NCBI GenBank assembly: GCA_049521895.1
Contig: JBEKOJ010000001.1
Span: forward strand, 695,114-759,113
Origin: Candidatus Saccharimonadales bacterium
GTDB lineage: Bacteria; Patescibacteriota; Saccharimonadia; Saccharimonadales; UBA10212
Direction of reading: 5' to 3'
Length of the DNA stretch: 64,000 bases
The position numbers and the translations under genes were made by a program. Under the pieces are notes generated by a model. The model saw only the letters and a program-made list of their open reading frames with translations. It ran no database searches and was not told the origin of the DNA. Shown piece after piece: positions 1,302-46,435 of the stretch (the first letter of the stretch is position 1; each line of letters starts with the position of its first letter).

Positions 1302-1428
1302 GAGCGAATTTAGCATCTACCATTTGTCATTTAGCATTTATTTTTCATTTGTCATTTAGCATTGAGCAGCAAAGTTAAATGTTACCTGTTAAATAAATGT
1401 GAATTGTGAACTGTTAAATGTAAAATAG
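1291..1428. repeat. CATTT/AAATG word-hairpin element, copy H1
   Basis: Small GC hairpin CGCTCC-AGTA-GGAGCG over the stop codon. A long AT-rich imperfect palindrome follows, with left arm (CATTTNN)n and right arm (AAATG)n. Contains the 15-mer CTGTTAAATAAATGT at 1386-1400. Confidence 0.7.
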
Positions 1429-1432
1429 TCTT

Positions 1433-3049
1433 ATGAGATCAATCGAGATTCCGCAGCCTGAGGACCGCGACTGGAAATACCGGGCCTTCGAGATTCTACC
1501 GGCAGTGTTAACCTGGACAATCCTAAGCCTTCCCGTAGTTTTGGGCATTATCAGCGCCCCGGCGGCGGCATTCTTCGTCATTGGCTACTTAATGCTTTGG
1601 TTTGTCCGTGCTATCGGTATAGATCTGCGCTCGCTCCAGGGATGGCATAATTTGAACCAACATAAAAGACTCCCTTGGAAAAAGCTCAATAGCGATCTGG
1701 AAATCCTCGAACCCAGGACTAAAAATGCCCCTGGCTGGCATGCCCGTAATCTACGCCGGGTAGAGAATAATATCCCCCGCACCCGCATTAAACCCAGCGA
1801 GGTTTATCACGCCGTTATCATCGCTTTCTGGAACGAGTCACGCGAGATCTTAGGGCCGACGGTTAAATCGGTACTAGATAGTGACTACGACCCCAAAAAA
1901 ATCATCCTAATCTTGGCTTACGAGCAGCGCGGCGGCCCGGAAATAGAAGCTACCGCTAGAAGCTTGATTAAAGAATACGGCAAAGATTTCTACTACGCCC
2001 ATGCCGTGATGCACCCATGGCCAATGACCGGGGAGGTTATCGGGAAGGGCGGCAATATTACTTATGCCGGTCGCTGGCTGAAAACCTACTTGGAAGAACA
2101 AAAAATTGACCCATTGCACGTTTTGGTCACCACACTTGATTCGGATAACCGTCCGGATCCTCAGTATCTTGGCGCCTTGACCTACACCTATTGTTCCACC
2201 GAGGATCCCAAACACTCCTCCTACCAGCCGGTACCAATGTTCCTCAATAATATCTGGGATGCGCCGGCGCCGATGCGCGTAGTCGCCACCGGTAACTCGT
2301 TTTGGAATATCATCTTGTCAATGCGCCCACACATGTTGCGTAACTTTTCCAGCCACGCCCAGCCGATGGCCGCTCTAATCGACACCGATTTTTGGAGTGT
2401 GCGCACTATCGTGGAGGACGGCCACCAATTTTGGCGAACCTGGTTCCGCTACGACGGCAACCACCAAGTCTATCCTATATACGTGCCGATTTACCAGGAT
2501 GCGGTACTGGCTGAAACCTACCGCAAAACCATAAAAATGCAGTTTATCCAGGTCCGGCGCTGGGCATGGGGCGCCTCCGACATAGCTTACTTTATCAACC
2601 AGGGCTTTTTTAAGATTAATAACATCCCGCTACATAAAAAAATTGCCAAATTTGGCCGCCTGCTAGAAGGCCACATTAGCTGGTCTACAGCTCCGCCGAT
2701 CCTACTGCTGTCCGCTTATCCGCCGTTTTTCCTGCATCCGCAAAGTTTTGTCGGCCAAGAGCTGCCCCAGTATGCCAGCGCCCTTCAGAGGATCGCTATG
2801 GTCGGTATTTTGATCAGCCTTTTTCTATGCATGAGATCGCTGCCCCCTAAGCCAGAGCGCTATAAACGCCGCCGCACCGTTTGGATGGTCATCCAATGGA
2901 TCTATCTGCCGATTACATCTATAATTTTCAGTTCCTTCGCTGCTATATACGCGCAAACCCGGCTGGCTTTTGGCCGGTATCTGGGCTTTATCGTTACTGA
3001 AAAAGCCAGTAAGAGTAAACGCGTGGACACCACAGAGTTACTGAAGTAA
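1433..3049 (+). CDS. membrane-bound family 2 glycosyltransferase (processive, cellulose/chitin-synthase-like)
   Basis: N- and C-terminal TM segments, DSDN acidic motif, and QVRRWAWG (the Q-x-x-R-W signature of processive GT2). Confidence 0.7.
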   Translation: MRSIEIPQPEDRDWKYRAFEILPAVLTWTILSLPVVLGIISAPAAAFFVIGYLMLWFVRAIGIDLRSLQGWHNLNQHKRLPWKKLNSDLEILEPRTKNAPGWHARNLRRVENNIPRTRIKPSEVYHAVIIAFWNESREILGPTVKSVLDSDYDPKKIILILAYEQRGGPEIEATARSLIKEYGKDFYYAHAVMHPWPMTGEVIGKGGNITYAGRWLKTYLEEQKIDPLHVLVTTLDSDNRPDPQYLGALTYTYCSTEDPKHSSYQPVPMFLNNIWDAPAPMRVVATGNSFWNIILSMRPHMLRNFSSHAQPMAALIDTDFWSVRTIVEDGHQFWRTWFRYDGNHQVYPIYVPIYQDAVLAETYRKTIKMQFIQVRRWAWGASDIAYFINQGFFKINNIPLHKKIAKFGRLLEGHISWSTAPPILLLSAYPPFFLHPQSFVGQELPQYASALQRIAMVGILISLFLCMRSLPPKPERYKRRRTVWMVIQWIYLPITSIIFSSFAAIYAQTRLAFGRYLGFIVTEKASKSKRVDTTELLK

Positions 3050-3198
3050 CTCTCATTTGACATTTATCATTTGACATTTAGCATTTATTTTTCATTTGAA
3101 CATTTTTCATTGCCCCACATTTGTTAAATACTACCTGTTAAATAAATGTAAATTGTTAAATGTAAAATGATAAATCCTGCAAAGCTAGCTTTGCAGGC
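3036..3198. repeat. CATTT/AAATG word-hairpin element, copy H2
   Basis: GC hairpin GAGTTAC-TGAA-GTAACTC over the GT2 stop, an AT-rich palindrome with CTGTTAAATAAATGT at 3135-3149, then hairpin CCTGCAAAGC-TAGC-TTTGCAGG over the nrdR stop. Confidence 0.7.
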
Positions 3199-3595
3199 TA
3201 GGGTGTTCGGCCATATAACGTAAACCAGCTCGTTTATCCAAACGGCCCAAGACCTTTGATGTGAGCTTGCTGATCTGTTCTGGCGCGAACAAGGGGCTCT
3301 CCGGCAGCTTTAGCAGGTTCTTTATAACAGTGTTAGTTACTTCCCGGGCGTCCACATAGCAGTTTTTTCGGTCCTGTAGGGCTAATAGTACTTCGGTAAA
3401 CAGCAAATCGGGCAAAAAGGCCTTTGTAGAGGCCCCAGATTGGACTAAAAGGGCATTAGGCAGGTCTATAGCCTCGTGAGTGGTAAAAACCGCCTTACAG
3501 GCCAAGCATTGCCGCCGGCGCCATACCTGATTGTTACGCTTCTGCAAACGGCTATTGATGACCTTTGTCTCATGCCCACAATATACACAAATCAT
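3185..3595 (-). CDS. nrdR: transcriptional repressor NrdR
   Basis: MICVYCGHETKVINSR...CLACKAVFTT zinc ribbon plus ATP-cone. I prefer ATG 3595 over the track start 3667, whose extension lies in repeat H3. Confidence 0.85.
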   Translation of the reverse strand: MICVYCGHETKVINSRLQKRNNQVWRRRQCLACKAVFTTHEAIDLPNALLVQSGASTKAFLPDLLFTEVLLALQDRKNCYVDAREVTNTVIKNLLKLPESPLFAPEQISKLTSKVLGRLDKRAGLRYMAEHPSLQS

Positions 3596-3597
3596 AG

Positions 3598-3676
3598 AGG
3601 TATTCCGTATTGTGTATATGGTATTAGGTATTTCGGCATACTTTATACTCCATACCTGATACCCCATACTAAATAC
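3598..3676. repeat. GTAT/ATAC word-hairpin element, copy H3
   Basis: GGTATTAGGTATT ... ATACCTGATACC arms. Related to the two 23S insertions at 40725 and 41530. Confidence 0.55.
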
Positions 3677-12177: not shown

Positions 12178-12975
12178 ATGAAAACGCTGAAATTCGACCA
12201 TGGACAGGCCCAGGCTATCCTAGCCGGCCAAAAAAACTCTACTTGGCGGCTTTACGACGATAAGGACCTTTCTGTTAGCGACGATATAAAAATTGTCGAT
12301 AAAGTTAATCCCAAAAACCCGGAGAGTTGGCGGATTATTGGCCAGGCTAAAGTCACAGAAATCATTGAAAAGCTACTGGGGTCAGTGACAGAGGAGGATT
12401 TACGTGCCCGCCCGCCTTTCAAAACTAAGGAAGAGGTGCTGGAAACCTATCGTGGCTACTACGGCCTGCGCGTAAATTTTGAAACGCCAGTCAAGATTAT
12501 TTATTTTGATTTTACACCCACTGTTGGTGACCAGCCTAGCGGCGCTATGTTACTGGAAGAGGCTAAACTTTATACCGATGGCGCCTCGCGTGGCAACCCT
12601 GGCAATTCGGCCTGCGCCTATATTATTTGCAAACCCGATAATACAACGGTAGAGAAGGGCGGTTATTACATGGGTATGGCTACCAACAACCAGGCCGAAT
12701 ACTATGGTTTTATCAAGGGGCTAGAGCGGGCCCGTGACCTGGGAATTGATAAAGTAGACCTGTTTTCCGACAGCCAGCTAGTCGTTAATCAGATGACCGG
12801 TCGCTACAGGGTTAAGAACCAGGAATTGGCGCCGCTGCACCAGCAGGCCAAAGCTTTAGCAGAATCTTTTGAAGAGGTTGGCTTTACCTACGTGCCGCGT
12901 GAGCTTAACAAAATCGCCGACACCGAAGTCAATCGCATCTTGGACCAGGCCGAAAGAAACAAGCGCAAAAAATAG
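12178..12975 (+). CDS. ASCH domain fused to RNase H (type 1)
   Basis: N-terminal ASCH-like region (AILAGQKNSTWR). C-terminal LYTDGASRGNPG...NNQAEY...FSDSQLVVNQ...NKIAD (the DEDD residues of RNase HI). Confidence 0.7.
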   Translation: MKTLKFDHGQAQAILAGQKNSTWRLYDDKDLSVSDDIKIVDKVNPKNPESWRIIGQAKVTEIIEKLLGSVTEEDLRARPPFKTKEEVLETYRGYYGLRVNFETPVKIIYFDFTPTVGDQPSGAMLLEEAKLYTDGASRGNPGNSACAYIICKPDNTTVEKGGYYMGMATNNQAEYYGFIKGLERARDLGIDKVDLFSDSQLVVNQMTGRYRVKNQELAPLHQQAKALAESFEEVGFTYVPRELNKIADTEVNRILDQAERNKRKK

Positions 12976-13023: not shown

Positions 13024-13365
13024 GGCTCAGATTATCGGCTGATTGCGTGCAGCAATGCACGAGGAAAGTCCGGGCAGTACATGGCAAAGGCAGTTGCTAA
13101 CAGCAACCGGGGACAACCCTAGGGAAAGTGCCACAGAAACAACACAACCGTATCTCTAAAGGGTGCGGAAATGGTGAAACGAGTGAGGTAAGAGCTCACA
13201 GCGACCGCGGGTGACCGCGGGAGAAGGTAAACCCTGCCTACTGCAAGGAGACAGCTACCAGAGCGGCCAGCTACGCTGTCGATTGAACCGCTTGAGCCCA
13301 GTGGCAACGCTGGGCCTAGATAGATAATCAGCTAAAACAGAACCCGGCTTACGGATAATCTGGCT
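13024..13365 (+). ncRNA. rnpB: RNase P RNA (bacterial type A-like)
   Basis: Universal GAGGAAAGTCCGGGC, ACAGAACCCGGCTTAC, and P1 pairing of GCTCAGATTATC with GGATAATCTGGC. Confidence 0.85.
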
Positions 13366-13374
13366 GACAAAGAG

Positions 13375-15760: not shown

Positions 15761-16016
15761 GGGCCGGGCATAAGGAGCTAGCCCGGCTTTTCGGGCATCT
15801 GTCGAGGCCTGAGTGGATGATGTGAAAAAGGGGCGTCTTTGAGTGCTAAAGCATGTCCGACGAAACTAAGCAGTCGGGGACTGCTTAGCGAGGAGTTCTT
15901 TAGCAAGCCCGCTTTTTGACTATCAGACACATCAAGCCGAGACAGCCGCCCGAGAGCTTTGATTACTTTGTCGGTACAAAGTAACAGATTATTTAAGCAC
16001 TTTGCAAAAGTGCTAC
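15761..16016 (+). ncRNA. structured-RNA-like repeat, copy A
   Basis: Conserved TGCTAAAG...CTTTAGCA helix around CATGTCCGACGAA-hairpin-CGAGGAGTT, plus two further hairpins. All three hairpins covary with copy B. Confidence 0.4.
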
Positions 16017-17340: not shown

Positions 17341-17471
17341 GGCATTTGCCATTTGCCATTTGCCATTTGCCATTAATTTACCAAGTGGCATTTGCCGTTG
17401 ATTAAATGAAAAAAGATCAATAAATGTTAAATGTGAATTGTTAAATGTGAATTGGAATGACGTAGTCATGA
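17341..17471 (-). repeat. intercistronic word-hairpin cassette, copy H5 (rpmI-rplT spacer)
   Basis: Reverse complement is roughly four-fifths identical by eye to 27341-27472. (CATTTGC)x4 arm versus (AAATGT/GAATTG) arm. Confidence 0.7.
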
Positions 17472-27340: not shown

Positions 27341-27472
27341 TCATGACTACGTCATTCCAATTATCATTTAACACTTTACATTTAACATTTATTGATCATT
27401 TTTCATTTAACAGATTCGAAAAATGGCAAATGCCAAATTAATGGCCAATGATAAATGGCCAATGATAAATGC
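27341..27472 (+). repeat. intercistronic word-hairpin cassette, copy H6 (gyrB-gyrA spacer)
   Basis: Starts TCATGACTACGTCATTCCAATT directly after the gyrB TAG. Ends AAATGCC directly before the gyrA SD. Confidence 0.7.
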
Positions 27473-32548: not shown

Positions 32549-32651
32549 GCGCGACGAGAGTCGCGCAGGAACAAGTAACAGGTAACAAGGAACTGGTTTT
32601 CCAGTTTCAAGTTTCATGTTTCGTGTTCCACAAATTCGCGTAAGCGAATTT

Positions 32652-32655
<4 letters not shown>
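32549..32655 (+). repeat. word-hairpin (GGAACA/AGTAACA type) in the 16S leader, copy H7
   Basis: GCGCGAC-GAGA-GTCGCGC, then AGGAACAAGTAACAGGTAACAAGGAACTGG-TTTT-CCAGTTTCAAGTTTCATGTTTCGTGTTCC, then CAAATTCGC-GTA-AGCGAATTT. Confidence 0.55.
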
Positions 32656-34241
<1,586 letters not shown>

Positions 34242-34258
34242 AGGGAGAATATTCAACC

Positions 34259-34386
34259 CGTGCTAACACACGGATTTAGCATTAAGCATTTTCCATTTAG
34301 CATTAATTTTTCATTTGACATTTGCCAACTGTTAAATAAATGTGAATTGTGAACTGTAAAGTAATAAATCTCGTGCAGAGCACGAG
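34259..34386 (+). repeat. CATTT/AAATG word-hairpin element in the 16S trailer, copy H8
   Basis: CCGTG-CTAACA-CACGG, an AT palindrome with CTGTTAAATAAATGT at 34329-34343, then CTCGTGC-AGA-GCACGAG. Confidence 0.7.
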
Positions 34387-34536
34387 GTATGGTTGATCCC
34401 CGCAGCCGGAGTTGAACTAACCGGTTGCACTCTAAAAGGGGAAAGTTCATTTTTGACGTTTGATCTGCACTACCCAGTTTTCAAAAAAGCCTGCTTTAAA
34501 AAGCGGGCTTTTTCTGCTAGAATACCCCTGTTGTGA

Positions 34537-34609
34537 GGGGTTATAGCTCAGCTGGTAAGAATACTCCGCAAAATAAAATTTTGCGGGGACCCCGAGTTGA
34601 GCGCGCCAC
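34537..34609 (+). pseudogene. degenerate tRNA-like remnant
   Basis: GGGGTTATAGCTCAGCTGGTAAGA is a tRNA 5' half. The middle is replaced by hairpin CCGCAAAAT-AAA-ATTTTGCGG, and the tail GAGTTGAGCGCGCCAC resembles the tRNA-Ile 3' end. No valid cloverleaf. Confidence 0.4.
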
Positions 34610-34634
34610 TGCTACTTAACAAAATGGTGTACAT

Positions 34635-34711
34635 GGGCACGTAGCTCAGCTGGTTAGAGCGCGTCACTGATAATGACGAGGTCCCTGGTTCGAGTCCAGG
34701 CGCGCCCACCA
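34635..34711 (+). tRNA. tRNA-Ile (anticodon GAU), CCA encoded
   Basis: Anticodon arm CGTCA-CTGATAA-TGACG and T-loop TTCGAGT. One A:C mismatch in the acceptor stem. Confidence 0.85.
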
Positions 34712-34808
34712 TGTGATTTTTGGCACTAACTTCTCTCGAGGTAGAGATATACCGGTCGCTATTCCGATCGCCGTTGTCAAAAACGACACTAAATATGGTT
34801 AGGGGCCT

Positions 34809-35675
34809 ATGGCAATTTCTTATACACCCTTTGGGAACAAATATCAGGATACTGGCAAGCTTGTTATGGGTTTCCCAGATTTCCTTCGCGATGATCTTGT
34901 TGAGTGGATACAAAACGTCATGGAGTTGAATCGGCTCGCGAGTGCCCCTAGCGATTTATACAGAACTTCCGGCTATCTTGATGCTAAGTTCCGCCGATTT
35001 CTGCAGCGTGAATTCATGAGAAACTTTCCCGATGATTGGCCGCATTTTATAAGAGAGGTGGTTGCCGACGAAGAACTCCTCGCCGACTATTTGTCTCTCT
35101 TGCTGAGAAACTTTGCCAACGGATCCCAGGCGAAAGTTTTAGAGTCTTTGCTTCGTCACGTGAACTCAGAATTTACGGTAAAGGCTACCAAAAACGATGC
35201 TGAAGATTATGATGTGGGATGTTTTGACTTGGAATACAGAGTTCCACGTGCAGTTCGTACAAACGCAAACAATGCTCTAAATAGCCAGCTATTATTAGAT
35301 GCTTGGCATGCCTGCTACGGAACCAGATCGCCCGACTACGAAAAATGTGTTAGTGCATGTGCCGACTTCTTGGAGGGCTATCTACGGGATAAGTTTTATC
35401 CGGAGATGGAGAGAACAAAAACGATTCCTCAATTCATCAATGATTTCAAAGAACCAGAGAAAATTGGCTTCGTCGGCGATGGTTTCGTGAAAGACAGGAT
35501 GTCACTAGTAAGTTTACTGACCGGTCTAAGTAACGCTCGTGGTCAGCACACGACGGGCAAGGGGCGACCTCCTACGCCCGAAGACGCAAAGTATGTTCTG
35601 CATACGACGATCTATATTTGGAACTTGATGGAGGGCAAAAGTTCTAGAGGTGGTACTTCGAAGCCGGAGGAGTAG
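34809..35675 (+). CDS. hypothetical protein, possibly Abi_C/HEPN-type abortive-infection-like
   Basis: Track ORF. The C-terminal LSNARGQHTTG resembles the R-x-x-x-H(G) HEPN/Abi_C motif. Weak by-eye call only. Confidence 0.35.
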   Translation: MAISYTPFGNKYQDTGKLVMGFPDFLRDDLVEWIQNVMELNRLASAPSDLYRTSGYLDAKFRRFLQREFMRNFPDDWPHFIREVVADEELLADYLSLLLRNFANGSQAKVLESLLRHVNSEFTVKATKNDAEDYDVGCFDLEYRVPRAVRTNANNALNSQLLLDAWHACYGTRSPDYEKCVSACADFLEGYLRDKFYPEMERTKTIPQFINDFKEPEKIGFVGDGFVKDRMSLVSLLTGLSNARGQHTTGKGRPPTPEDAKYVLHTTIYIWNLMEGKSSRGGTSKPEE

Positions 35676-35855
35676 GACGTCGCTTAACGAACGGTCCGGG
35701 TTCCGGCTCAGACTGTCCCGGTCGGTGCTGTAAAAACGGCAGCATAGACAGCACTAAATATGGATTTTCGGACCGGAGATGGCTCACCGAGGGTCGATCT
35801 TTTCCGTGCTCGATGACGAGTGTGAGCCGCTCGCCGCCTTGTGGTCGAAAACGAC

Positions 35856-36359
35856 CTACGCCCACGACCCGGGATCGCCTGGAAACCGCCAAGGGTGGTA
35901 GCCTGTGCAGGGAGCCTGGCCGCAATACGGACAGACAGAAACGCGTCCACCATCATCCACATAGGCATTAGCGATGCGTTCTCGTTCCTTTCGCCACAGT
36001 CGTTCATTCTCCTCCCACTTGATAATTTCATCGGCTCCAATTAGCTCCGCGACGGCCGCGGCTTTTTCTGTCACGCGATTAACAACATCATGCATCGAAA
36101 GTGACTCGGCAACCACCTGAGCACCGCAATAAGCGTCAAAGGCGTAGATCAATCTGAGAGGGCGTTCTGATTCAACCTGTTCGTCACCCTCTGACTCCAA
36201 GTAGCTGACGATACCGCGCTTACGTCTTCGCGACATCCTACGACTTGAATTCCGTTCCCAGGCCTCTCGGCGAAGATTGAATCTTTCTTGTAAAAATTGT
36301 TCAACTTCTTGACGTTCACGTTGATAATCGCTTGGCAATTGTGGCTCGTACTCACTCAT
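35856..36359 (-). CDS. hypothetical protein with a C-terminal CPYCGQAPC cysteine cluster
   Basis: Track ORF. Charged N-terminus. No family recognised. Confidence 0.4.
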   Translation of the reverse strand: MSEYEPQLPSDYQRERQEVEQFLQERFNLRREAWERNSSRRMSRRRKRGIVSYLESEGDEQVESERPLRLIYAFDAYCGAQVVAESLSMHDVVNRVTEKAAAVAELIGADEIIKWEENERLWRKERERIANAYVDDGGRVSVCPYCGQAPCTGYHPWRFPGDPGSWA

Positions 36360-36811
36360 ACAATCATTATCTCATATTGTCTACTGAGCCAACAATGGAC
36401 TGCGATTAGTGGTGATACTTCGAAGCTGGGTTCGACCGCCGCGTAATCGATGGGGGCCCAGACTCAGGCTGTTCACCCCGAAGTAGCTTTAGTATAATTT
36501 CTAGAGGTTTGGGCAGGTTGGAAAGATGCCCAGTTAGGACCACCACGCAAAAGCTCGGCCTATGAGGCAAGAGCCAAACAATGATCTGTTTGACCCTTTG
36601 CCTTTTCGGCCGGCTTTTGTTTTTCCCCAAGCCACAGCTCCGTGGCTTGGGGACCCCAGCAGATTAATCTGCTATAATTACCTCTGTTCTTTAACAAATT
36701 TTCAAAGCGGCGGTCTAATCACCGTTTGAAAATTTGAGAGGAGCGGCATAGCACTAAGCCGAAGCTTTTGGCTTACTTGGCAAAATGAGGCAAGTGCGTA
36801 GGCCGTGACGA

Positions 36812-36888
36812 GGGGCATTAGCTCAGTTGGCTAGAGCACCACATTTGCAATGTGGGGGTCATCGGTTCAAATCCGATATGCTCCACCA
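36812..36888 (+). tRNA. tRNA-Ala (anticodon UGC), CCA encoded
   Basis: Acceptor GGGGCAT/ATGCTCC with the G3:U70 alanine identity pair. Anticodon arm CCACA-TTTGCAA-TGTGG. Confidence 0.9.
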
Positions 36889-36912
36889 GTCACCTTTAGG
36901 CGTATATCAATC

Positions 36913-37869
36913 TTATAAACTCGTTCTGGACTTGTATACGGCGCGGGCTAGCAGGAGACAGATATTGGATTCGGCGCCGCTGTGGCGGTTGATTTCGCCT
37001 CTGTTAATACCGTCGTAGCATTTTAAGTTCTTAGGCTGGTACATTTTCTGTTTGGCGATATTATCACCCTCAAACCAATTCAACCACTGCTTAGCGTTTG
37101 TGAGGCTGGCTCTCTGGCCATCAAACTGGTAACAGGCCACCCAGGCCAGCACCATGTAGGCAACATCTACCGGCTGCTGGGAGTAATCCGCTGGTCTAGC
37201 TTGGCCTTTTTGGAACCAACCGTCGTTGCCCACCGGACCAAGAACGCGGCCTTTTGTACAAACTTCCTCCAGAAACCCCAGCAACTTATAGGCCTTGTCA
37301 GCCATAGTCTTATCACCGCTGATCAGGCTGTAGCGTAAAAGGGAGTAGGGGATTATAGCGTTGGCATAAGTTATTCGTTGTTCCAGCCAATACCAATCTT
37401 TGGTGCAATTTTGCAGCAGCTTATCCATTTTGCCCGCTAACTGTTTGGCGAGCCCGGCGTCCCAATAAATAGCTCCCAGTAGCGCGTAAGCGTAACCCCG
37501 GATATGCTTCATCTTTGGCAGGGTTGGTCCAATCCGTACTAAAATCTTCCGGCACTCTTGTGGCTTAAATCCAGCTGATAGACTGTAGCCTAAAGCCCAG
37601 GCCACCTGGCCCTTGGCATCCTCAGAAGAAGGATAGGTGTTAAATTGTCCGCTAGAGGTGGCGAAGCCGTAAAAATCGCTACCTTTTCGCGAACGGCTAA
37701 TGTAGTCAAATAATACCTCGGCCCTGCCCAAATCATTATGTGCTAAACACGAGATCAAGCCACGCGCGGCGTCGTCAAGACTATAACCGGATTCTTTAAG
37801 CCACCTGCGGCCATCGGTGTGGTGGTGCACCCCGAAGCTATCTACTAAGCTGTCAAAAAAGTACTTCAT
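36913..37869 (-). CDS. (alpha/alpha)6-barrel (six-hairpin) glycosidase-like protein
   Basis: Track ORF with a repeating helical W/Y-rich pattern. 4-nt overlap with the upstream GT4 gene. By-eye call. Confidence 0.4.
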   Translation of the reverse strand: MKYFFDSLVDSFGVHHHTDGRRWLKESGYSLDDAARGLISCLAHNDLGRAEVLFDYISRSRKGSDFYGFATSSGQFNTYPSSEDAKGQVAWALGYSLSAGFKPQECRKILVRIGPTLPKMKHIRGYAYALLGAIYWDAGLAKQLAGKMDKLLQNCTKDWYWLEQRITYANAIIPYSLLRYSLISGDKTMADKAYKLLGFLEEVCTKGRVLGPVGNDGWFQKGQARPADYSQQPVDVAYMVLAWVACYQFDGQRASLTNAKQWLNWFEGDNIAKQKMYQPKNLKCYDGINRGEINRHSGAESNICLLLARAVYKSRTSL

Positions 37870-39110
37870 ACGGATTTAGGCAACGCGTCATCTATAATCT
37901 TCCAGTAAGCCTCGGCGACCCTGTCCCAGCCCATTTCCTTGCCGTATTTAGTGGCATTTAGCCTGATAGTCTTATACAGCCGCTGATTCGTTATTAGTAA
38001 TATTATGGCTGCGCCTATGGCTTCGGAATTATTGAATGGCACGAGTAGCCCACGATTTTTGGACAGGAGCTCCCTCGCATAGGCGTAAGGTGTGGAAATC
38101 GATACCAAACCGTTACCCACAGCGTAAGCTAACGTACCCGAGGCCGATTGCTCCGGGTCATTGTGGATTGTCAGATACACATCAGAAATAGCCAGATAAT
38201 CCAGTAGCAACTCCGAGGATATATATTTGTTTACAAATCTGACATGCTGGCTTACGCCCAAATCACGGGCCAGTTTTTTGAGGCTCTTGCGGTACTGCTC
38301 ACCGGCGTTTTTTATTATCTGGGGATGAGTCTGGCCGACGACCAGTAACTGAATCTGGGGGTACTCGGCTACTAAGTCAGGCAAGGTCTTAATAATGGCC
38401 TCGATATTCTTGTTCGGACCAATCAGGCCGCTAACCATTAGGTAAAATTTATCATCAGGCAGCTTTAGGCGTTTTAGGATCTTCGATCTGGCTTCGTTTT
38501 TTTCTTTAAGCTCAACCCCGTGGGGAATAAAGGTGGTCTTGCGGGCTATTGCTGGCCACTGATGAATAATCACGCCTTTTGATTGCTCTGTCATCAGGAT
38601 AATTTTGCATGAGCGGGCGGCTATTTCAGCTAGCACCTTCGAGCGCTCGGCATCTAGATGTGGTAAAACTGTATGCAAGGTAGTGATTATAGGAGCGTTA
38701 ACACCCTCCAGTAGGTCCAGCAAGTAATTGCCGGTTGGTGTGCGGTAATCCATGCCTTTTATGCGGAAATTTGCCCACTTGCCGCCGTATATGCCGTATT
38801 CGTGTTGTAACAATATAACGTCAGGCTTAAAGTGTCTTAGGGCTTCGGCGGCCCTCAAATAGCTCTCTTTAGAAGCAGTGTCGACAACAATCTTAACGTT
38901 GCTACCATAACTAAGTTTCTCTTTTTCTTCGGCGGCCACGACAAATAAATCCATCGGGGTGATCTTCTGCATATAAGTGATCAGGTTATTGGTAAAGGTA
39001 GCAATACCGCATTTTTTAGGTACGTACGAACCAATTACAGCAACCTTTGGCAGGCTTTTTTCAGAGATTGTACCAACTATTTTTTTGCTCGATTCGGCTA
39101 TTTTAACCAT
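37866..39110 (-). CDS. family 4 (GT-B) glycosyltransferase
   Basis: Two Rossmann halves. C-terminal PEQSASGTLAYAVGNGLVSISTP resembles the E-x7-E region. Confidence 0.7.
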   Translation of the reverse strand: MVKIAESSKKIVGTISEKSLPKVAVIGSYVPKKCGIATFTNNLITYMQKITPMDLFVVAAEEKEKLSYGSNVKIVVDTASKESYLRAAEALRHFKPDVILLQHEYGIYGGKWANFRIKGMDYRTPTGNYLLDLLEGVNAPIITTLHTVLPHLDAERSKVLAEIAARSCKIILMTEQSKGVIIHQWPAIARKTTFIPHGVELKEKNEARSKILKRLKLPDDKFYLMVSGLIGPNKNIEAIIKTLPDLVAEYPQIQLLVVGQTHPQIIKNAGEQYRKSLKKLARDLGVSQHVRFVNKYISSELLLDYLAISDVYLTIHNDPEQSASGTLAYAVGNGLVSISTPYAYARELLSKNRGLLVPFNNSEAIGAAIILLITNQRLYKTIRLNATKYGKEMGWDRVAEAYWKIIDDALPKSV

Positions 39111-39185
39111 TAACTAATTTCAGTCAGCTAGCTTTAGTACCCATGCTTTCACACCTGGCTGATTGAGTTATACTTAATATAACAA

Positions 39186-40142
39186 ATGTACTCAATAAAG
39201 AACAGATATGGTGGGTTAGAGCTAAGGCTGGAACGGCTTACCGATCAACCTATTTTAGTGCCGGATGGCCGCAGAGACTGGGAAGTGGGAGGAGTATTTA
39301 ATCCAGGAGTTATTAAAAACGGCACGGACTATATAATGATTTATCGTGCCTTTGGAAAAGACAAAATCTCACGGCTTGGCTATGCTTCTAGCAAAAATGG
39401 AATCTCATGGCGCAAAAACCCAAGGCCAATTATTGAGCCAGACCCTAGCGACAAGCAGGAAAGTCGAGGCATGGAAGACCCGCGGATCGTCAAACTCAAC
39501 GGTAGTTATTACATCACCTACACAGCGGCCGAGGGCTTTCCAGTCCGGAAAAGTTGGCGCTGGCGGACCATGATAAGGATTTTGGTTACTGAAGACTTTA
39601 AAGAAATTGGCAAAATAACCCCCAGTTTGCACGGCATCGGCGAAAAAAACGACAAAGACGCAGTATTGTTCCCGGCCAAAGTCAACGGCCAGTATTGGCT
39701 ATTGCACAGGGTCATTCCTGACGTGCATATCGCCCAATCAACCAACCTTATAAGCTGGCAAGAAAAAGGTACTGTAATTAAAAACCGCCAAGACGGCTGG
39801 TCGTACATAAAAGTTGGTGCTGCCGCACCGCCCGTGCTTACTGATTATGGCTGGCTGATGTTTTATCATGGTGTCCGCAGGGATAAAAGTTACGCCCTGG
39901 GGGTAGCATTACTGGATGCTGCTGACCCCTGTAAATTGACCCACCTTCTGCCTTATGCAATTTTTGAGCCGGAGCGGGATTACGAACTATTTGGTGTAGT
40001 GCCAAGGGTTGTCTTTGGTACGTCAGTGTTGGAAGTTGGTAGTGCGCTATGGGTTTATTACGGCGCTGCTGACAGGGTGATAGGCGTGGCCGCGATTGAT
40101 AAAAAAATACTCCTCGATAACCTCGTACGATACATGGTTTAA
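39186..40142 (+). CDS. GH130-family glycosidase/beta-mannoside phosphorylase-like protein
   Basis: GVFNPGVIKNG...YRA..., MEDPRIVKLNGSYYITYTA, and a five-bladed-propeller DUF377/GH130 pattern. Confidence 0.7.
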   Translation: MYSIKNRYGGLELRLERLTDQPILVPDGRRDWEVGGVFNPGVIKNGTDYIMIYRAFGKDKISRLGYASSKNGISWRKNPRPIIEPDPSDKQESRGMEDPRIVKLNGSYYITYTAAEGFPVRKSWRWRTMIRILVTEDFKEIGKITPSLHGIGEKNDKDAVLFPAKVNGQYWLLHRVIPDVHIAQSTNLISWQEKGTVIKNRQDGWSYIKVGAAAPPVLTDYGWLMFYHGVRRDKSYALGVALLDAADPCKLTHLLPYAIFEPERDYELFGVVPRVVFGTSVLEVGSALWVYYGAADRVIGVAAIDKKILLDNLVRYMV

Positions 40143-40724
40143 AGCTAACAATTTTGTCTGGTGGCCTCCTTTCGAAGAAGTTACCACCGGTGATTTAATA
40201 TCTAAAACCAATTCTTCTATACTCAACTGATACCAAAACGTAACCTTTTTTACAGCGATTTGGGGTTGATTACATCTGTTAAAATTGCTAAAATAGTCTT
40301 GGTCGTTTGAGTACGGCCAGTTTGTTAGTCGGCAACCGGCCGGTACTAATCCTCTGGGCTTACTCAAACTCTTTTCCGCGAATCGATCTTTCATGACGCA
40401 CGGTGGAGCGAGAGCAAGCATGTAATTTAACAACTCGGGCTGTATAGCGGCCAGCAAAGCCGCATGCAGATTGAGAAAGCAAATGACAGATAGCATTGGT
40501 GAGAACCAATAGCTAGTCAAATGCACAAATCAGTAGTGAGATTTATCTCATTACTTTGTAAAAAGTTACTCAAGCGCACATAAAGGATGCCTTGACGCAA
40601 AACACCGAAGAAGGACGTAGATGACTGCGATAAGCCGCGGGGAGCTGCCTCACAAGCTTTGATCCGTGGATGTCCGAATGGGGAAACCTCATGCAAGTTA
40701 TATTGCATGGCGCCAAACTGAAGT

Positions 40725-40838
40725 GCTTCTCACTGGCGTGAGAAGCGGTATAGCGTATCTCGTATAAAGTATTAGGTATTTTTTATACCATATACCTTAT
40801 ACCGGATACCAAATACTGCTTACCGCGTTAGCGAGGAG
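40725..40838 (+). repeat. GTAT/ATAC word-hairpin insertion in 23S domain I, copy H9
   Basis: 114 nt inserted between AACTGAAGTG and CATATAGG relative to E. coli. Left half is near-identical to 41530-41587. Confidence 0.7.
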
Positions 40839-41194
40839 CATATAGGTCTGGTAGCGGTAAGCTGGGGAACTGAAACATCTTAGTACCCAGAGGAAAGGAA
40901 AGTAAACAACGAATCCCGTAGTAGTGGCGAGCGAACCGGGACCAGCCCAAACCTTTTAAGTTTCCATCTGTTAATTCAGGTGGATAAATTGGTAGATGAA
41001 TACTTAATAGGGGTTGTGACAAACAATTAACCAGTACGGAGCCCTGGAGCAATCCAGGACTGCGTACTGCTGCAGGTTCTACCGATGGCCTGCGTAAGGT
41101 TACAAATTTCCGGGGCGAGCAGAACAGTCTGGAAAGGCTGGCCAAAGACAGTGAAAGCCTGGTACGCAAAGTGTCGGAAACCTTATCAATTGTT

Positions 41195-41353
41195 TAGCGG
41201 TGCGCAGCACCGCATTTACCATTGACCATTTTTCATTTACCATTGATTTTTCATTGACCATTTACCATTGCAAGCTGCAATTGTTAAATGTTACCTGTTA
41301 AATAAATGTAAATTGTTAAATGTAAATTGATAATTGCGATGCTACGCATCGCC
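41195..41353 (+). repeat. CATT/AATG word-hairpin insertion in 23S, copy H10
   Basis: GCGGTGC-GCA-GCACCGC, an AT palindrome with CTGTTAAATAAATGT at 41295-41309, then GCGATGC-TAC-GCATCGC. Confidence 0.7.
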
Positions 41354-41529
41354 TGTCGAGTAGGTCGGGACACGTGAAACCCTGACTGAAACCAGAGGGA
41401 CCACCCTCTAAGGCTAAATATGTTTTGCGATCGATAGTGTACAAGTACCGTGAGGGAAAGGTTAAAAGAACCGCGGATAGCGGAGTGAAATAGAGCCTGA
41501 AATTATGTGCGTACAAGGAGTCGGAGCGA

Positions 41530-41645
41530 GCTTCTCACTAGCGTGAGAAGCGGTATAGCGTATTTCGTATAAAGTATTAGGTATTTTTTCATACCTTATA
41601 CCCAATACCTGATACCAAATACTGCTTATCGCGTAAGCGAGAAGC
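41530..41645 (+). repeat. GTAT/ATAC word-hairpin insertion at the 23S helix 25 position, copy H11
   Basis: Inserted within the GGAGC...GTGAC helix-25 equivalent. Outer stem GCTTCTC/GAGAAGC. Confidence 0.7.
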
Positions 41646-42264
41646 TTGTGACGGCGTGCTTTTTGTAGAACGATCCAGCGAGTTACTCAGTCACCGCAAG
41701 CCTAAGCCATTTGGCGGAGGCGCAGTGAAAGCGAGGGTTAAATACCCGAAATTAGTGGGGCTGAGTAGACCCGAAACCGGGTGACCTAACCATGGGCAGG
41801 CTGAAGCGTGGGTAAAACCACGTGGAGGGCCGCACCACCGTGAGTTACAATACACTTGGATGACCTGTGGTTAGTGGTGAAATGCTAATCGAACCCGGAG
41901 ATAGCTGGTTCTCCTCGAAATAGCTTTAGGGCTAGCGTCGTACGGTAACGATCAGGGGTAGAGCTCTGTTTTGGACTAGGGCCAGTGATGGTACCTACCC
42001 TTGACAAACTACGAATACTGGTCGCGGAACTACGGCAGTTAGAACGTGGGGGCTAAGCTCCACGCTCGAAAGGGAAACAGCCCAGATCGCCAGCTAAGGT
42101 CCCTAAATATACGCTAAGTGGGAAACGAAGTGGGAATTCTTGGACAATAAGGATGTTGGCTTAGAAGCAGCCATTCATTTAAAGAGTGCGTAACAGCTCA
42201 CTTATCAAGAAATCCTGCGCGGAAAATGTAACGGGGCTAAAGCGTATTACCGAAGCTGCGAACG

Positions 42265-42392
42265 CCAGTAGTGGGACTAAGTCTACGGACTTGTCGCAAA
42301 CTGTTCTTGAAGGGAAAAAGAGCAGCCCGAGAGAAATGTATTCCATTTCCCCGGCGCGATGAGAAAAAACCGCAGGTTTTGTCTCATTACTG
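42265..42392 (+). other. about 128-nt expansion at the 23S helix 45 position
   Basis: Replaces the ~20-nt GCAGCGACGCTTATGCGTTGTTGGG segment of E. coli. Closed by CCAGTAGTG/CATTACTGG. Confidence 0.55.
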
Positions 42393-42892
42393 GTTTGGTA
42401 GAGGAGCGTTGATATCGCACTGAAGTCAGATCGTAAGGTCTGGTGGAGCGTTATCAAGTGAGAATGCTGGAATGAGTAACGATAAGGCAGGTGAGAATCC
42501 TGCCCACCGAAAGAGCAAGGTTTCCTGGGCCATGATAATCAGCCCAGGGTTAGTCGGTCCTAAGCCGAGGCAGGATATGCGTAGGCGATGGACAACGGGT
42601 TAATATTCCCGTACCGGTGTTAATTTGTTAAGTGGTGCGCATTGGATAAGTAGGAGCGGATTCATGGTTATATCCGTCTAACTAGTCCTTACGGGCTAGG
42701 AATGAAACGGCTGCAATATGCCGGATTTCTGCCGACACGGTGCCTAGAAAAGCCACCTAGCTTATGATTAACGCCGACCGTACCGCAAACCGACACAGGT
42801 GCTCAGGGCGAGTAGCCCAAAGGTGTACGAGTGATTCTTCGTTAAGGAACTCGGCAATATAGCGACCGTAAGTTCGCGATAAGGTCTGCCTG

Positions 42893-43058
42893 GGCTCTTC
42901 ACAGGTGAAGAGCCAATGGACAAATGCGACAAATGTTCAATGGACAAATGAATAGTCAGTGCAATCAATGATTCAACGCATTGAGGTATTAAAAGCATTC
43001 ATTAGTTCATTAGTTCATTCGTTCATTGATTCATTGGGCTCATCGCTTGCGATGAGCC
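42893..43058 (+). repeat. AATGGACAAATG/CATTCATT word-hairpin insertion in 23S, copy H12
   Basis: GGCTCTTCAC-AG-GTGAAGAGCC, an AT palindrome, then GGGCTCATCGC-T-TGCGATGAGCC. Confidence 0.65.
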
Positions 43059-43236
43059 TAGGCTGCAACAAAAGAACCCATGCAACTGTTTACTAAAAAC
43101 ACAGGTCTCTGCTAACACGAAAGTGGATGTATAGGGGCTGACGCCTGCCCGGTGCTGGAAGGTTAAGGGGAAAGCTTTACGGCTAGAACTGAAGCCCCAG
43201 TGAACGGCGGCCCTAACTATAAGGGTCCTAAGGTAG

Positions 43237-43932
43237 GAAAGCTGCTTTAGTAAAATTCGGCTATATGCTGGAACATCTGAGAATCGGACTGTACTATGGT
43301 AAAATGTTTCCTTAGATGGGCAACATTAACCTTAGTGACAATCATGTCCGTGCAGACAATCAGCAGGGAAGATTAGATGTATGGTGGATTACGGGTTTCG
43401 TTGACGGCGAAGGGTGTTTCTCGATAAGTGTCTTTAAGAATGCGACCACCAAGGCGGGAGTTCAAATATTCCCGGAATTCGTGGTAACGCAAGGCGCCAA
43501 AAGCCTGCTAACGCTGAAGAATCTGCAAGATTTCTTCGGTTGTGGCCGGATATATGAAAATAGGCGTACAGATAATCATCGGGAGAACCTTTACAGATAT
43601 TGCGTAAGATCAAAACAAGATTTAAGGGATAAGATAATTCCGTTTTTTAAGGAATATCCTCTAAAAACTTCTAAGCATCAGGATTTTCTGGTGTTTTGTA
43701 AGGTAATGGATATGATAGAGAGCAAATCACATCTTAGCCCCGAAGGCCTTATGATCATACGTGAACTGGCAGCCACTACGAACAGACGTAAACCACGTAT
43801 CTAAAACCCTCAGAGACTATACGCCGAAGCCGCTTTAAGGCGGCAAGATATAGTCCGATCTCCATGGCGACATGGAGGATGCAAGCAAAAGCTTTTGCAT
43901 CGTAAAAACAGCAGTAATTGAACTCAAATGAG
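43237..43932 (+). mobile_element. group I intron at the 23S L1917-equivalent site
   Basis: Exon sequence GGTCCTAAGGTAG | CGAAATTCCTTGTC is interrupted by 696 nt. The core element AAGATATAGTCCGA is present. Confidence 0.8.
43316..43804 (+). CDS. LAGLIDADG homing endonuclease (single-motif type)
   Basis: WWITGFVDGEGCFSI motif. The ORF is entirely inside the intron. Confidence 0.85.
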   Translation: MGNINLSDNHVRADNQQGRLDVWWITGFVDGEGCFSISVFKNATTKAGVQIFPEFVVTQGAKSLLTLKNLQDFFGCGRIYENRRTDNHRENLYRYCVRSKQDLRDKIIPFFKEYPLKTSKHQDFLVFCKVMDMIESKSHLSPEGLMIIRELAATTNRRKPRI

Positions 43933-44046
43933 CGAAATTCCTTGTCAGGTAAGTTCTGACCCGCACGAATGGCGTAATGATATGGGTACTGTCTCGACGA
44001 AGAGCTCGGTGAAAGTGCATTGACGGTAAAGATGCCGTCTGTCCGC

Positions 44047-44078
<32 letters not shown>

Positions 44079-44202
44079 ACAGTTTGGCATTGTGCCGAGC
44101 GTGTATATGTGTAGCATAGGTGGGAGACTTTGAAGCTGACGCGCTAGCGTCGGTGGAGTCACCGGTGAAATACCACCCTTATATACGTTTTGTACTTACA
44201 TG

Positions 44203-44379
44203 GCCCTTGAATTGCAAGCAATTCAGGGCATTTACCATTGACCATTTTGCATTACCATTAATTTTTCATTTGTCATTTTTCATTGCAGCTGCAATTGTTA
44301 AATGGTATCTGTTAAATAAATGTTAATTGTGAATTGTAAAATGTTAAATGACCCTGGAAGATTACTTGTAATTCCAGGG
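44203..44379 (+). repeat. CATT/AATG word-hairpin insertion in 23S domain V region, copy H13
   Basis: GCCCTGAATTGC..GCAATTCAGGGC-type clamp, an AT palindrome with CTGTTAAATAAATGT at 44309-44323, then CCCTGGAA...TTCCAGGG. Confidence 0.7.
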
Positions 44380-44600
44380 TCGTGGACAGTGTCTGATGGG
44401 TAGTTTAACTGGGGCGGTTGCCTCCTAAAGAGTAGCGGAGGCGTTCAAAGGTTGGCTAGATACGGATGGAAATCGTATTGGTAGTGTATACGCACAAGCC
44501 AGCTTGACTGCGAGGCATACAAGCCGAGCAGGCACGAAAGTGGGAGTAAATGACCCGCTGATCGCACCTTTTGGTGCATGAGTGTGGTATTGACAGCGAA

Positions 44601-44633
<33 letters not shown>

Positions 44634-44769
44634 TATAGCGCCCAATAGTTCACATAGACGGCGCTGTTTGGCACCTCGATGTCGGCTCATCTCATCCTGG
44701 AGGGGGAGCACCTTCCAAGGGTCGGGCTGTTCGCCCGTTAAAGAGGTACGTGAGCTGGGTTTAGAACGT

Positions 44770-45531
44770 AAATTACATTGCGTTCTACTACTGTAAAGTA
44801 GTAAAATGCTGGTGTACATCGCACCAATAGCATTAACATTCGGCTAATATCGGTGAAACCCCACTCGGATTTTCGAACAATCCGAAGGGCAATACCGAGG
44901 GAAGACGAAATCGTCCATGACTAACGAAGAAAAAGCCTACATAGCTGGGTTTTTAGATGGTGATGGTTCAATCATGGCACAGTTGGTAGCCCGCAAGGGC
45001 TACAAGCTGGGCTATCAGATAAGAACCAGCATCGTTTTCTATCAGAAAACGATCCATCTAGAACATCTCCTTTGGCTTAAAGAGCAGCTAGGCTACGGTT
45101 ATGTTCGCGACCGCCACGATGGCATGAGCGAATATACCATAGTCGGCTTAAGGGAAGTAGAAGCAGTTTTGAAGCTTCTAGGACCCTTTCTTCACCTCAA
45201 AAAAGTTTTGGCGCGCAGCGTGTTGGCAATAATTGCCCAGCATCCGGCGCAGCGCAAAATGACCGAGGCGCAACTGATTAGGTTAAGCAAGCTGGTTGAT
45301 AAAACAGCCGCTTTCAACTATTCCAAGAAGCGCACCAACACAAGTGTTCAGGTCATCAATTTTTTGAGCAGTCGTGAGATTTTGTCCCCGTAGAGACTGA
45401 AGCTTAGCGGAAGCCCCGCGAAGCTGAGATGGGATCCTCAACCAGAGGCCCATAATACGCCGACTCCTAATCCGCACCGGCGGAAAGGAAGAAGATATAG
45501 TCCGTGCCATTAGTAATAATGGAATTACACG
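44770..45531 (+). mobile_element. group I intron at the 23S L2593-equivalent (I-CreI) site
   Basis: Exon sequence GGGTTTAGAACGT | CGTGAGACAGTTCGG is interrupted by 762 nt. The core element AAGATATAGTCCGT is present. Confidence 0.8.
44917..45393 (+). CDS. I-CreI-like LAGLIDADG homing endonuclease
   Basis: YIAGFLDGDGSIMAQ, GYVRDR and AAFNYSKKRTNTSVQV parallel I-CreI LAGFVDGDGSIIAQ, GYVRDR and AALNDSKTRKTTSETV. Confidence 0.85.
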   Translation: MTNEEKAYIAGFLDGDGSIMAQLVARKGYKLGYQIRTSIVFYQKTIHLEHLLWLKEQLGYGYVRDRHDGMSEYTIVGLREVEAVLKLLGPFLHLKKVLARSVLAIIAQHPAQRKMTEAQLIRLSKLVDKTAAFNYSKKRTNTSVQVINFLSSREILSP

Positions 45532-46093
45532 CGTGAGACAGTTCGGATTATATCCGCTGTGGACGATAGGAAATTTGCGAGGAGTTGCCTCTAGTACGAG
45601 AGGACCGAGGCGAACGCACCGCTGGTGTATGGGTTGTTCTACCAAGGGCATTGCCCAGTAGCTATAGTGCGGAATGGATAAGCGCTGAAAGCATATTAAG
45701 CGCGAAGCCAACCTCTAGATTAGATTTCCCCATGATCCCCCAGAAAGACTATCTGGTTGATAGGCGCAAGGTGGAAGTACAGTAATGTATGGAGCCGAAG
45801 CGTACTAATAGGGACATTGACTTTTTACACTATGAGACAAACCTGTGGTTTTTCTCATCGAGCCTGACGGAGTTAATCCGTCTTTCGCTCGAGGAGCGAA
45901 ACCAACTCTGCTCTTTTCCTTCGGGGGAAGGCAGGGAAAGCAGGTTAGTCTTATAGGGATAAGTGCAACTTGACTAGCTTTTGGTAATCAGCAATAATGA
46001 CTGTGGTCATTTGGCAGATTACGTCGTTTGCTTTACAACACATCCGTGCCAATCTTATGGTTGCCGAAGAAGCTCCCCATCGAGGGTCGCTTC

Positions 46094-46207
46094 TTCGGTG
46101 CCCATGGCGCTAGGGAAACACCTGTTCCCATCCCGAACACAGAAGTTAAGCCTAGCTGCGGTTACAATACTTGGGTTTTAGCCCTGGGAAAATAGCACGG
46201 TGCCGAA
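46094..46207 (+). rRNA. rrf: 5S ribosomal RNA
   Basis: CCCATCCCGAACACAGAAGTTAAGC core. Helix I is TTCGGTGCC/GGTGCCGAA. Confidence 0.85.
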
Positions 46208-46213
46208 ATATAT

Positions 46214-46246
46214 AAAGGGCCTCCGAAAGGAGGTCCTTTATCTTTT
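46214..46246 (+). terminator. intrinsic terminator after 5S
   Basis: GGGCCTCC-GAAA-GGAGGTCC followed by TTTATCTTTT. Confidence 0.65.
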
Positions 46247-46435
46247 GGCCACGGCTTTTATAAGTCGGAACAGACCTATGATTATCAGGGGTACACCTAT
46301 GAATATTGAGACAATTGCCAACCCCAGAGTGCTTAAGCCTGATGAATCGATACTATTTCCAGAAACAATGGCCACGATTGGCAGCAGTATTCCGGCGAGA
46401 ATCATCAAGAGGGCATTGCGCCTGCGGTTATTCAT
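46238..46435 (-). CDS. small membrane protein (65 aa)
   Basis: Track ORF with two clear hydrophobic helices. No obvious SD. Confidence 0.4.
   Translation of the reverse strand: MNNRRRNALLMILAGILLPIVAIVSGNSIDSSGLSTLGLAIVSIFIGVPLIIIGLFRLIKAVAKR

Follow-up and report, generated by a model that had tools for sequence, protein, structure and literature searches.

Intervening sequences of bacterial 23S rRNA genes are located at helices 25 and 45 (at helix 9 in Alphaproteobacteria), are excised by RNase III and are known from Salmonella, Leptospira, Campylobacter, Yersinia and Coxiella. Short insertion sequences were also reportedly described in rRNA genes of the Candidate Phyla Radiation (CPR) by Brown et al. 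in 2015. Here we analyzed a DNA stretch of 64,000 nt (contig JBEKOJ010000001.1, positions 695,114 to 759,113; below called the window) from a peat-metagenome "Candidatus Saccharimonadales" bacterium (Saccharibacteria, CPR). We focus on its 23S rRNA gene, where two near-identical hairpins of inverted GTAT and ATAC repeats, ins1 and ins2, are inserted at two different helix tips. Our results suggest that ins1 and ins2 probably are paralogous cassettes of the intervening-sequence type without an open reading frame (ORF), placed on the loops of helices 10 and 25 and spread and homogenized by recombination. To the intervening sequences and short CPR rRNA inserts they add a modular architecture and population dynamics that have not been described before.

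In the survey by Tsurumaki et al. from 2024, inserts of at least 100 bp were present in 35 of 35 Saccharibacteria 23S genes, and 64 of 66 rRNA inserts in the phylum were no longer than 250 bp and without introns or endonuclease genes (PMC11270868). The same study reports LAGLIDADG introns at positions 1931 and 2593 of CPR 23S genes and names helices 25 and 45 as the classical sites of intervening sequences, in agreement with what the initial annotation of the window had stated (PMC11270868). The short Saccharibacteria inserts were left uncharacterised, with RNase III intervening sequences as a guess, and the words hairpin, repeat and palindrome are absent from the text (PMC11270868). The cassettes described here belong to the same phenomenon, which in that study stands at catalogue level. 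Beyond the catalogue we add the heptamer period, the end modules, the paralogy across several sites, the swapping between strains and the intergenic relatives, and these short inserts now have an anatomy of end modules around a heptamer-repeat hairpin.

The first cassette, ins1 (40725..40839, + strand), sits in the apical loop of helix 10 in domain I (E. coli ~161-165), where it stands in place of E. coli 162-164 (CTGAA^ATAGG). The second, ins2 (41530..41645, +), occupies the helix 25 loop (E. coli 546-549) and replaces a helix tip whose empty form in relatives is GGAGC-CGGC-TTGT-CCGG-TGAC. The initial annotation had read two near-identical GTAT/ATAC hairpins at two 23S positions, one in domain I and one at helix 25, and the coordinates, the identity and the placement were all confirmed. 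A global alignment gave 106 identical columns out of 116, and the 10 differences (9 substitutions and 1 indel) are unevenly spread, with 2 in columns 1-60 and eight in the remaining 56, which bears out the observation that the first ~58 nt hardly differ and that the right halves are more diverged.

Each cassette consists of an inverted GTATnnn heptamer array with a GC-rich end module of 22 nt on each side. In ins1 the 5' module covers 40725-40746, the GTATnnn/nnnATAC hairpin 40747-40817 and the 3' module 40818-40839, and in ins2 the corresponding parts lie at 41530-41551, 41552-41623 and 41624-41645 (all +). The 5' module reads GCTTCTCAC-N4-GTGAGAAGC, the interior has five GTATnnn heptamers before and five nnnATAC heptamers after a T-rich loop, and the 3' module is GCTTAyCGC-GTwA-GCGAGrAGC, with the general form GCTyryCGC-GNNA-GCGAGrAGC. 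When ins1 was compared to itself at a lag of 7 nt, the self-identity was 0.53. Both cassettes were predicted to fold as one long imperfect hairpin, a rod of ~55 bp, with folding energies of -59.5 (ins1) and -53.6 kcal/mol (ins2) as compared to -26.1 and -23.4 kcal/mol for shuffled sequences. The corresponding z-scores were -10.5 and -8.9, and none of 200 shuffles folded as well. No ORF was found in ins1 or ins2, and hence not the PF05635 (23S_rRNA_IVP) ORF of intervening sequences either. Neither cassette has a match in Rfam; this, together with a length of 116 nt that is too short, led us to reject group I or group II introns as their identity.

The 23S genes of relatives were collected via homologues of the intron endonuclease and with a helix 9 pattern specific to the lineage, which gave 56 loci when metagenomes were scanned. 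Across these relatives (loci with L numbers) the end modules recur as CTTCTCAC-N4-GTGAGAAGC ... GCTCGTCGC-GTGA-GCGAGGAGC at five 23S sites and in nine distinct cassettes, with a different heptamer interior each time. The sites are helix 10 (window and L193, with a variant in L008), E. coli ~340-370 (L173), helix 25 (window and L008), E. coli ~651-667 (L173) and helix 63 (L133, L147/148 and L156/170/190), and helix 63 is the most widely occupied of them. The helix 63 insert of the window itself (42892..43058, +, E. coli 1703-1769) has related end modules, GGGCTCTTCAC..GTGAAGAGCC and GGGCTCATCGC..GCGATGAGCC, and AATG/CATT arms with a period of 8. Possibly, helix 63 is the source of the end module, since the usual base of this helix in other lineages (CCCCTCAC...GTGAGGGG) resembles it.

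When the 5' and 3' modules of the nine cassettes were paired with each other over the terminal 20 bp, we obtained 8 double-change cells and a covariation score of 0.161, which none of 500 shuffles reached. A model with two self-folded hairpins gave slightly more paired cells and no covariation (106 of 500 shuffles were as good). Our models show the end modules paired with each other and the heptamer arms with each other, in a predicted rod of ~55 bp that extends the host helix. Paired ends are a feature of intervening sequences, and here they are seen both in the z-scores of the rods and in the terminal covariation. A tRNA-like four-way junction at the cassette base was considered and dropped, as the arm lengths and loops are unlike those of tRNA. 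Taken together, these comparisons show a common cassette structure and paralogy across several sites of the 23S gene.

The alignments further show cassettes that were replaced between near-identical strains. In a sister strain (L008 and L010) the 23S gene is identical to window 40851-44825 except for one indel, ins2 included, and the helix 10 arm (40714-40850) is wholly replaced by a cassette of a second hairpin family, the CATT type described below, of 140 nt instead of 90. This cassette sits on the shared outer stem CTTCTCAC/GAGGAG, and in its interior it shares 88% identity with the cassette at helix 79 of that gene. A second swap was seen in another species, from Hainich groundwater, where the flanks of L193 and L189 are 99.2% identical and the helix 10 inserts are unrelated. 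In L193, a CTTCTCAC cassette is accompanied by a 5' stem of the window type that does not pair properly with the 3' stem of L193 itself, as expected after an import that was recent and is still uncompensated. The end modules of this helix 10 cassette are shared with ins1, and its interior is far more diverged from ins1 than that of ins2 is.

Among related 23S genes, helix 10 is occupied in 4 of 57, so the helix 10 insert is not ancient, and an enlarged helix 25 segment was found in 15 of 46. Sporadic presence and lateral exchange, as known for intervening sequences, are evident from these fractions and from the swaps in two species. The initial annotation had argued for recent copying or mobility of the inserts, not slow independent growth, and had named site occupancy in relatives as a way to check this; the swap in the sister strain, the swap in the second species, the L193 comparison and the occupancy of helix 10 all support its view. 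The 3' module of ins1 is chimeric, with an inner half like ins2 and an outer half like the L193 helix 10 cassette, and because of this we infer that the helix 10 cassette of the window was converted by the helix 25 cassette through the modules that they share. The 5' half would have been homogenized most recently, since the 2-versus-8 split of the differences fits this order.

The short 23S inserts surveyed in the order, 88 distinct blocks of at most 260 nt, were scored for self-identity at lags 2-12. Lag 7 was the best in 45 of these 88, often at 0.45-0.6, and in 1 of 12 long inserts (introns or ORF-bearing). Of 22 heptamer inserts, 18 have a more stable fold on the rRNA-sense strand than on the complementary one, which points to a G-U bias and therefore to structure at the RNA level. 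At helix 25, two relatives (L143 and L177) carry PF05635 ORFs flanked by heptamer stems of the form GTCTTCn/nGAAGAC, in line with helix 25 as a classical site, and two others (L157 and L189) carry GIY-YIG ORFs there. A further insert of ~160 nt is present near E. coli 650 in L143 and L157. Because the PF05635 ORFs of relatives lie at helix 25 and have heptamer stems, the ORF-less heptamer cassettes and the ORF-bearing intervening sequences share site and, judging from the repeats, stem design, and the window copies would be ORF-less forms of intervening sequences.

Like classical intervening sequences, the cassettes are extra stem-loops of 100-150 nt on helix tips, they are sporadic among close strains and they are exchanged laterally. 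Helices 25 and 45 are occupied, with ins2 in the loop of the former and thereby at a classical site, and relatives have the 23S_rRNA_IVP ORF at helix 25. Unlike the classical forms, they have tandem-heptamer stems and end modules common to five sites, a gene can hold up to seven short inserts, helices 10, 63 and 79 and E. coli ~350 are used as well, and the same hairpin families are also found between protein genes; moreover, they are here known from DNA alone.

A course of events that would account for these data begins with a helix 10 cassette that retained its site-specific outer stem, as in L193, and took its interior from the helix 25 cassette. The copying may have occurred by ectopic gene conversion via the shared end modules, with the 5' half as the latest tract. 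Conserved rRNA flanks would allow transfer between strains and species by homologous recombination, slippage of 7-nt units may let the interiors grow and vary, and the CATT interior at least is a dispersed genomic repeat as well. In the pre-rRNA, RNase III could cut out the rods without religation and leave a fragmented but functional 23S rRNA, with processing expected at the conserved double-stranded base of ~22 bp. By analogy with the classical systems we lean slightly towards excision of the pre-rRNA rods by RNase III, and give less weight to the cassettes being retained as expansion segments.

Several observations weigh against this interpretation. The helix 10 stem differs between the two strains with compensatory changes, therefore intragenic conversion is insufficient and import from another lineage must be added. 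The direction of copying, from helix 25 to helix 10 or the reverse, was deduced from one outgroup fragment of 216 nt. ins1 is located in the loop of helix 10, which is not a classical site, and the covariation between the end modules corresponds to about three independent changes among nine related sequences. The palindromes that flank one of the CATT cassettes (CATT-A, see below) each fold on themselves better than they pair across the cassette, and the base of this cassette may therefore be a junction instead of a rod. Finally, no rnc gene, encoding RNase III, was found among the 20 window ORFs scanned.

Further short inserts of the window's 23S gene are laid out like ins1 and ins2, but with different repeat units. 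The second hairpin family has a CATTnnn core and is represented twice in this gene. CATT-A (41197..41352, +) lies in an insert of 176 nt at E. coli ~346-370, with its core at 41213-41337 and small GC-rich palindromes on both sides (41197-41213 and 41336-41352). CATT-B (44202..44381, +) belongs to the 160-nt insert at helix 79 (E. coli 2207-2209), where the core at 44229-44352 is likewise flanked by small GC-rich palindromes. With the CATT-B core, CATT-A shares 86% identity and the L008 helix 10 cassette 88%, and by this measure CATT-A and CATT-B are a second paralogous pair in the same 23S gene. A hidden Markov model of the CATT hairpin found 7 copies in the 64-kb window with 78-88% pairwise identity: two in the 23S gene, one in the 16S trailer and four intergenic. 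The trailer copy (34257..34386, +) is situated in the pre-rRNA 18 nt past the 16S 3' end and has flanking small palindromes. The intergenic copies are found at 1308..1428 (+, nhmmer E 2.8e-31), at 3054..3177 (+, with convergent genes on either side and palindromes at 3036-3051 and 3176-3197), at 17343..17454 (+) and at 27358..27471 (-, in the gyrB-gyrA gap), the last two being a subfamily with the right flank GGAATGACGTAGTCATGACTA.

The GTAT family also has an intergenic member in the window, at 3598..3676 (+) upstream of nrdR (NrdR domain in the ORF 3185-3667, - strand). Its kinship with ins1 and ins2, proposed from the letters, was supported by nhmmer with an E value of 4.8e-22, and it is without the GC-rich end modules. 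The rRNA end modules are absent from the intergenic copies of both families, and the small palindromes that flank the intergenic CATT copies are of unrelated sequence; terminal repeats are conserved among the rRNA cassettes only. Taken together, the searches show a kinship of the rRNA cassettes with dispersed repeats. The window also contains a GC-rich imperfect palindrome of 177 nt at 15791-15953 (-85 kcal/mol over 196 nt), which is located between convergent ORFs and is unrelated to the heptamer hairpins.

Eukaryotic expansion segments are carried by helices 10, 25, 45, 63 and 79, and those of 28S rRNA are said by Hancock and Dover to be cryptically simple and to co-evolve. A serious alternative, although we regard it as less likely, is that the cassettes are true expansion segments kept in the mature ribosome and shaped by compensatory slippage of 7-nt motifs and by concerted evolution. 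The 7-nt period in about half of the short inserts (45/88) would fit such a history, as would the G-U bias of the rRNA strand, which indicates constraint at the RNA level, and the location of all sites in apical loops of these same peripheral helices. The simple-repeat composition, the compensatory arms and the similar motifs in several inserts of one gene are shared with the 28S segments as well. On the other hand, the cassettes are bacterial, have a strictly 7-nt unit, are replaced as a whole and have copies outside rRNA, all of which sets them apart from the 28S segments. Slippage alone fails to explain a whole-cassette swap between strains with otherwise identical 23S genes, or the same elements between protein genes and in the 16S trailer, and relatives have ORF-bearing intervening sequences at the same site with the same kind of stem. 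For a cell with a genome of ~0.77 Mb it also seems costly to keep weak, AU-rich hairpins of ~1 kb in total in its ribosomes.

To place the GTAT hairpin in a wider context, GTDB representative genomes were scanned with a pattern in which a loop separates three GTATnnn from three nnnATAC units. This gave at least 118 loci (L014-L131) as compared to ~0.03 expected by an estimate with uniform base composition, and we do not claim that the GTAT core is special. Among the matches listed, many CPR phyla are represented, as are Chloroflexota, Bacteroidota, some metagenome-assembled genomes of Gammaproteobacteria and Bdellovibrionales, and one Nanoarchaeote; typically they have 4-5 units per arm, and several directly abut tRNA genes. 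Most of the listed matches fill gaps between genes, and the flanking gene pairs are often co-directional or convergent and rarely divergent (24, 24, 18 and 4). Neither an rRNA copy nor the source genome was among the matches listed, and no transposase or other recurrent neighbor gene was found at the 118 listed loci. In viral contigs there were 3 GTAT matches and 0 CATT matches, and no viral or autonomous relative was found. In two Patescibacteria loci (L106, 4494-4567; L127, 304-370) the GTAT hairpin is placed between 'gggcaggcccgtaacagccg' and a T-box-like 'aaggtggtaccacgc', and these hairpins may be part of a structured leader RNA. When six loci with GTAT hairpins apparently in structured RNAs were searched with Rfam, no family reached its gathering score.

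A broader interpretation, which we offer tentatively, is that heptamer-repeat hairpins form a widespread and unrecognised modular class of RNA or DNA. The Saccharibacteria cassettes would then colonise helix tips, rRNA spacers and intercistronic gaps via a dedicated mechanism, either a hairpin-specific recombination or an RNA processing that reads the ~22-bp base, and the GTATnnn hairpins at the at least 118 loci would represent the same functional signal and not simple sequence that arose by chance.

Neisseria Correia elements and Rickettsia palindromic elements are small palindromic repeats that are either transcribed and then cut by RNase III or inserted into genes. The cassettes resemble them as dispersed, non-coding hairpins of 100-150 nt that are tolerated in functional transcripts, and differ from them by the heptamer substructure, by the lack of a target-site duplication and by having no termini common to intergenic and rRNA copies. 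In a further alternative, the cassettes would be miniature inverted-repeat transposable elements moved by a transposase that is encoded elsewhere and binds their conserved terminal inverted repeats, and helix tips and intergenic spaces would merely be the places where insertions survive. The conserved termini around a variable interior, the same cassette ends at five non-homologous 23S sites and the dispersal of the CATT family in 7 copies per 64 kb with 78-88% identity, some of them intergenic, would all be expected from such elements. However, at helices 10, 25 and 63 a filled site differs from an empty one by replacement of the tip with no target-site duplication, and the intergenic copies have non-homologous flanking palindromes instead of the rRNA end modules. 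The 118 listed GTAT loci, as described above, revealed no transposase or recurrent gene, and no viral or autonomous relative turned up either. Because neither a target duplication at these helices nor a transposase at the listed loci was found, we consider transposition improbable.

Heptamer repeat families are known from cyanobacteria as STRR. Similar TAACTGA heptamer repeats occur in Beggiatoaceae, Cyanobacteria and Bacteroidetes (PMC4679880). Their 7-nt unit, intergenic location and presence in distant phyla are shared with the hairpins described here. Whereas STRR and TAACTGA repeats are direct tandem arrays, our elements consist of two inverted arrays that form a hairpin, have a 4-nt core with a variable 3-nt spacer, lie inside rRNA and often have GC-rich palindromes at the hairpin base. 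REP elements are 20-40 bp long with a GTAG or CGTC tag (PMC3733652), and we rejected a REP/RAYT identity on account of size and the missing tag. Likewise, TIGR arrays have a 36-nt unit and require the Tas gene (PMC12045711), and were rejected since our hairpins have a 7-nt unit and the listed GTAT loci revealed no associated gene.

That the two hairpins arose by independent convergent growth of GTAT repeats, or by faulty assembly, can practically be dismissed: GTATnnn inverted arrays are present in many unrelated genomes, so the core motif alone is no evidence of homology, but the match extends to the variable spacer triplets and the 22-nt end modules (106/116 identical), and a stretch of 6158 bases (40143-46300) is 100% identical across six independent assemblies (MEGAHIT and SPAdes; JGI and ENA data), which rules against an artefact.

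As intervening-sequence-type cassettes, ins1 and ins2 give the short Saccharibacteria inserts a population behavior, with swaps between strains whose rRNA is otherwise identical and probable copying between helix tips. They also link the classical ORF-bearing intervening sequences with dispersed intergenic repeats. Because the rRNA genes of these organisms are mosaics, phylogenies and strain typing require that the inserts be masked. The origin and movement of expansion segments or intervening sequences can be studied in the cassettes as a natural system, and the conserved double-stranded base of the cassettes is a candidate rRNA processing site in an uncultured lineage.

The 16S and 5S rRNA genes of the window were located with Rfam at 32651-34239 and 46094-46208. 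The 23S gene covers 40559..45830 (+), with a match to Rfam LSU_rRNA_bacteria at 40559-44878 and blastn similarity to E. coli rrlH beyond, where E. coli 2594-2884 aligns to 45532-45809. Its true end is at ~45830, past an intron, and not at 44878, where the Rfam match breaks off because of the intron at 44770-45531. With a length of ~5270 nt, compared to 2904 nt in E. coli, the gene holds about nine inserts. Alignment with E. coli by blastn placed ins1 between E. coli 129 and 181, two inserts at 270-312, the CATT-A insert at 346-370 and ins2 at 546-549. The insert at helix 45 (42260..42393, +, E. coli 1162-1182), already recognized in the initial annotation, is real, and is a branched hairpin without heptamer period. 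The other inserts in that first list are real as well, but the list was incomplete, as the gene has more inserts than those given. The second paralogous pair, the conserved end modules, the 7-nt period and the membership of these hairpins in dispersed families with intergenic copies had likewise escaped the initial annotation.

In addition to the short inserts there are two group-I-like introns, one of 690 nt at 43241..43930 (+, E. coli ~1931) with a LAGLIDADG ORF at 43316-43804, and one of 762 nt at 44770..45531 (+, E. coli 2593/2594) with a LAGLIDADG ORF at 44917-45393. Their matches to the group I intron family RF00028, at 33 and 26 bits, are below threshold, and both ORFs are of the single-domain LAGLIDADG type, with the domain assigned by Pfam. 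Both are context and lie outside the hairpin family. The intron at E. coli 2593 (window 44826-45481) is ~8% diverged from that of L008 and the exons beside it are identical, which suggests that it was replaced between the strains by homing or recombination.

Helix 6 of the 16S gene (E. coli 68-100; window 32718-32862) carries ~110 nt of inserted sequence with a branched, GC-rich fold of non-heptamer type. The gap between the 16S and 23S genes (34240-40558) is 6.3 kb long and contains tRNA genes at 34635 and 36812 and protein genes, including a group 1 glycosyltransferase gene (37866-39110, -) and a GH130 phosphorylase gene (39186-40142), and the spacer is ~1.8 kb shorter in the sister strain. 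A giant ORF with CBM_4_9 and LDL-receptor-like repeats begins a short distance beyond the 5S gene, at ~46939, and runs past the end of the window; its annotated length in L006 is 7609 aa. Elsewhere in the window, an ORF at 12178-12975 with ASCH and RNase H/RVT_3 domains is located directly upstream of the RNase P RNA gene (13027-13367).

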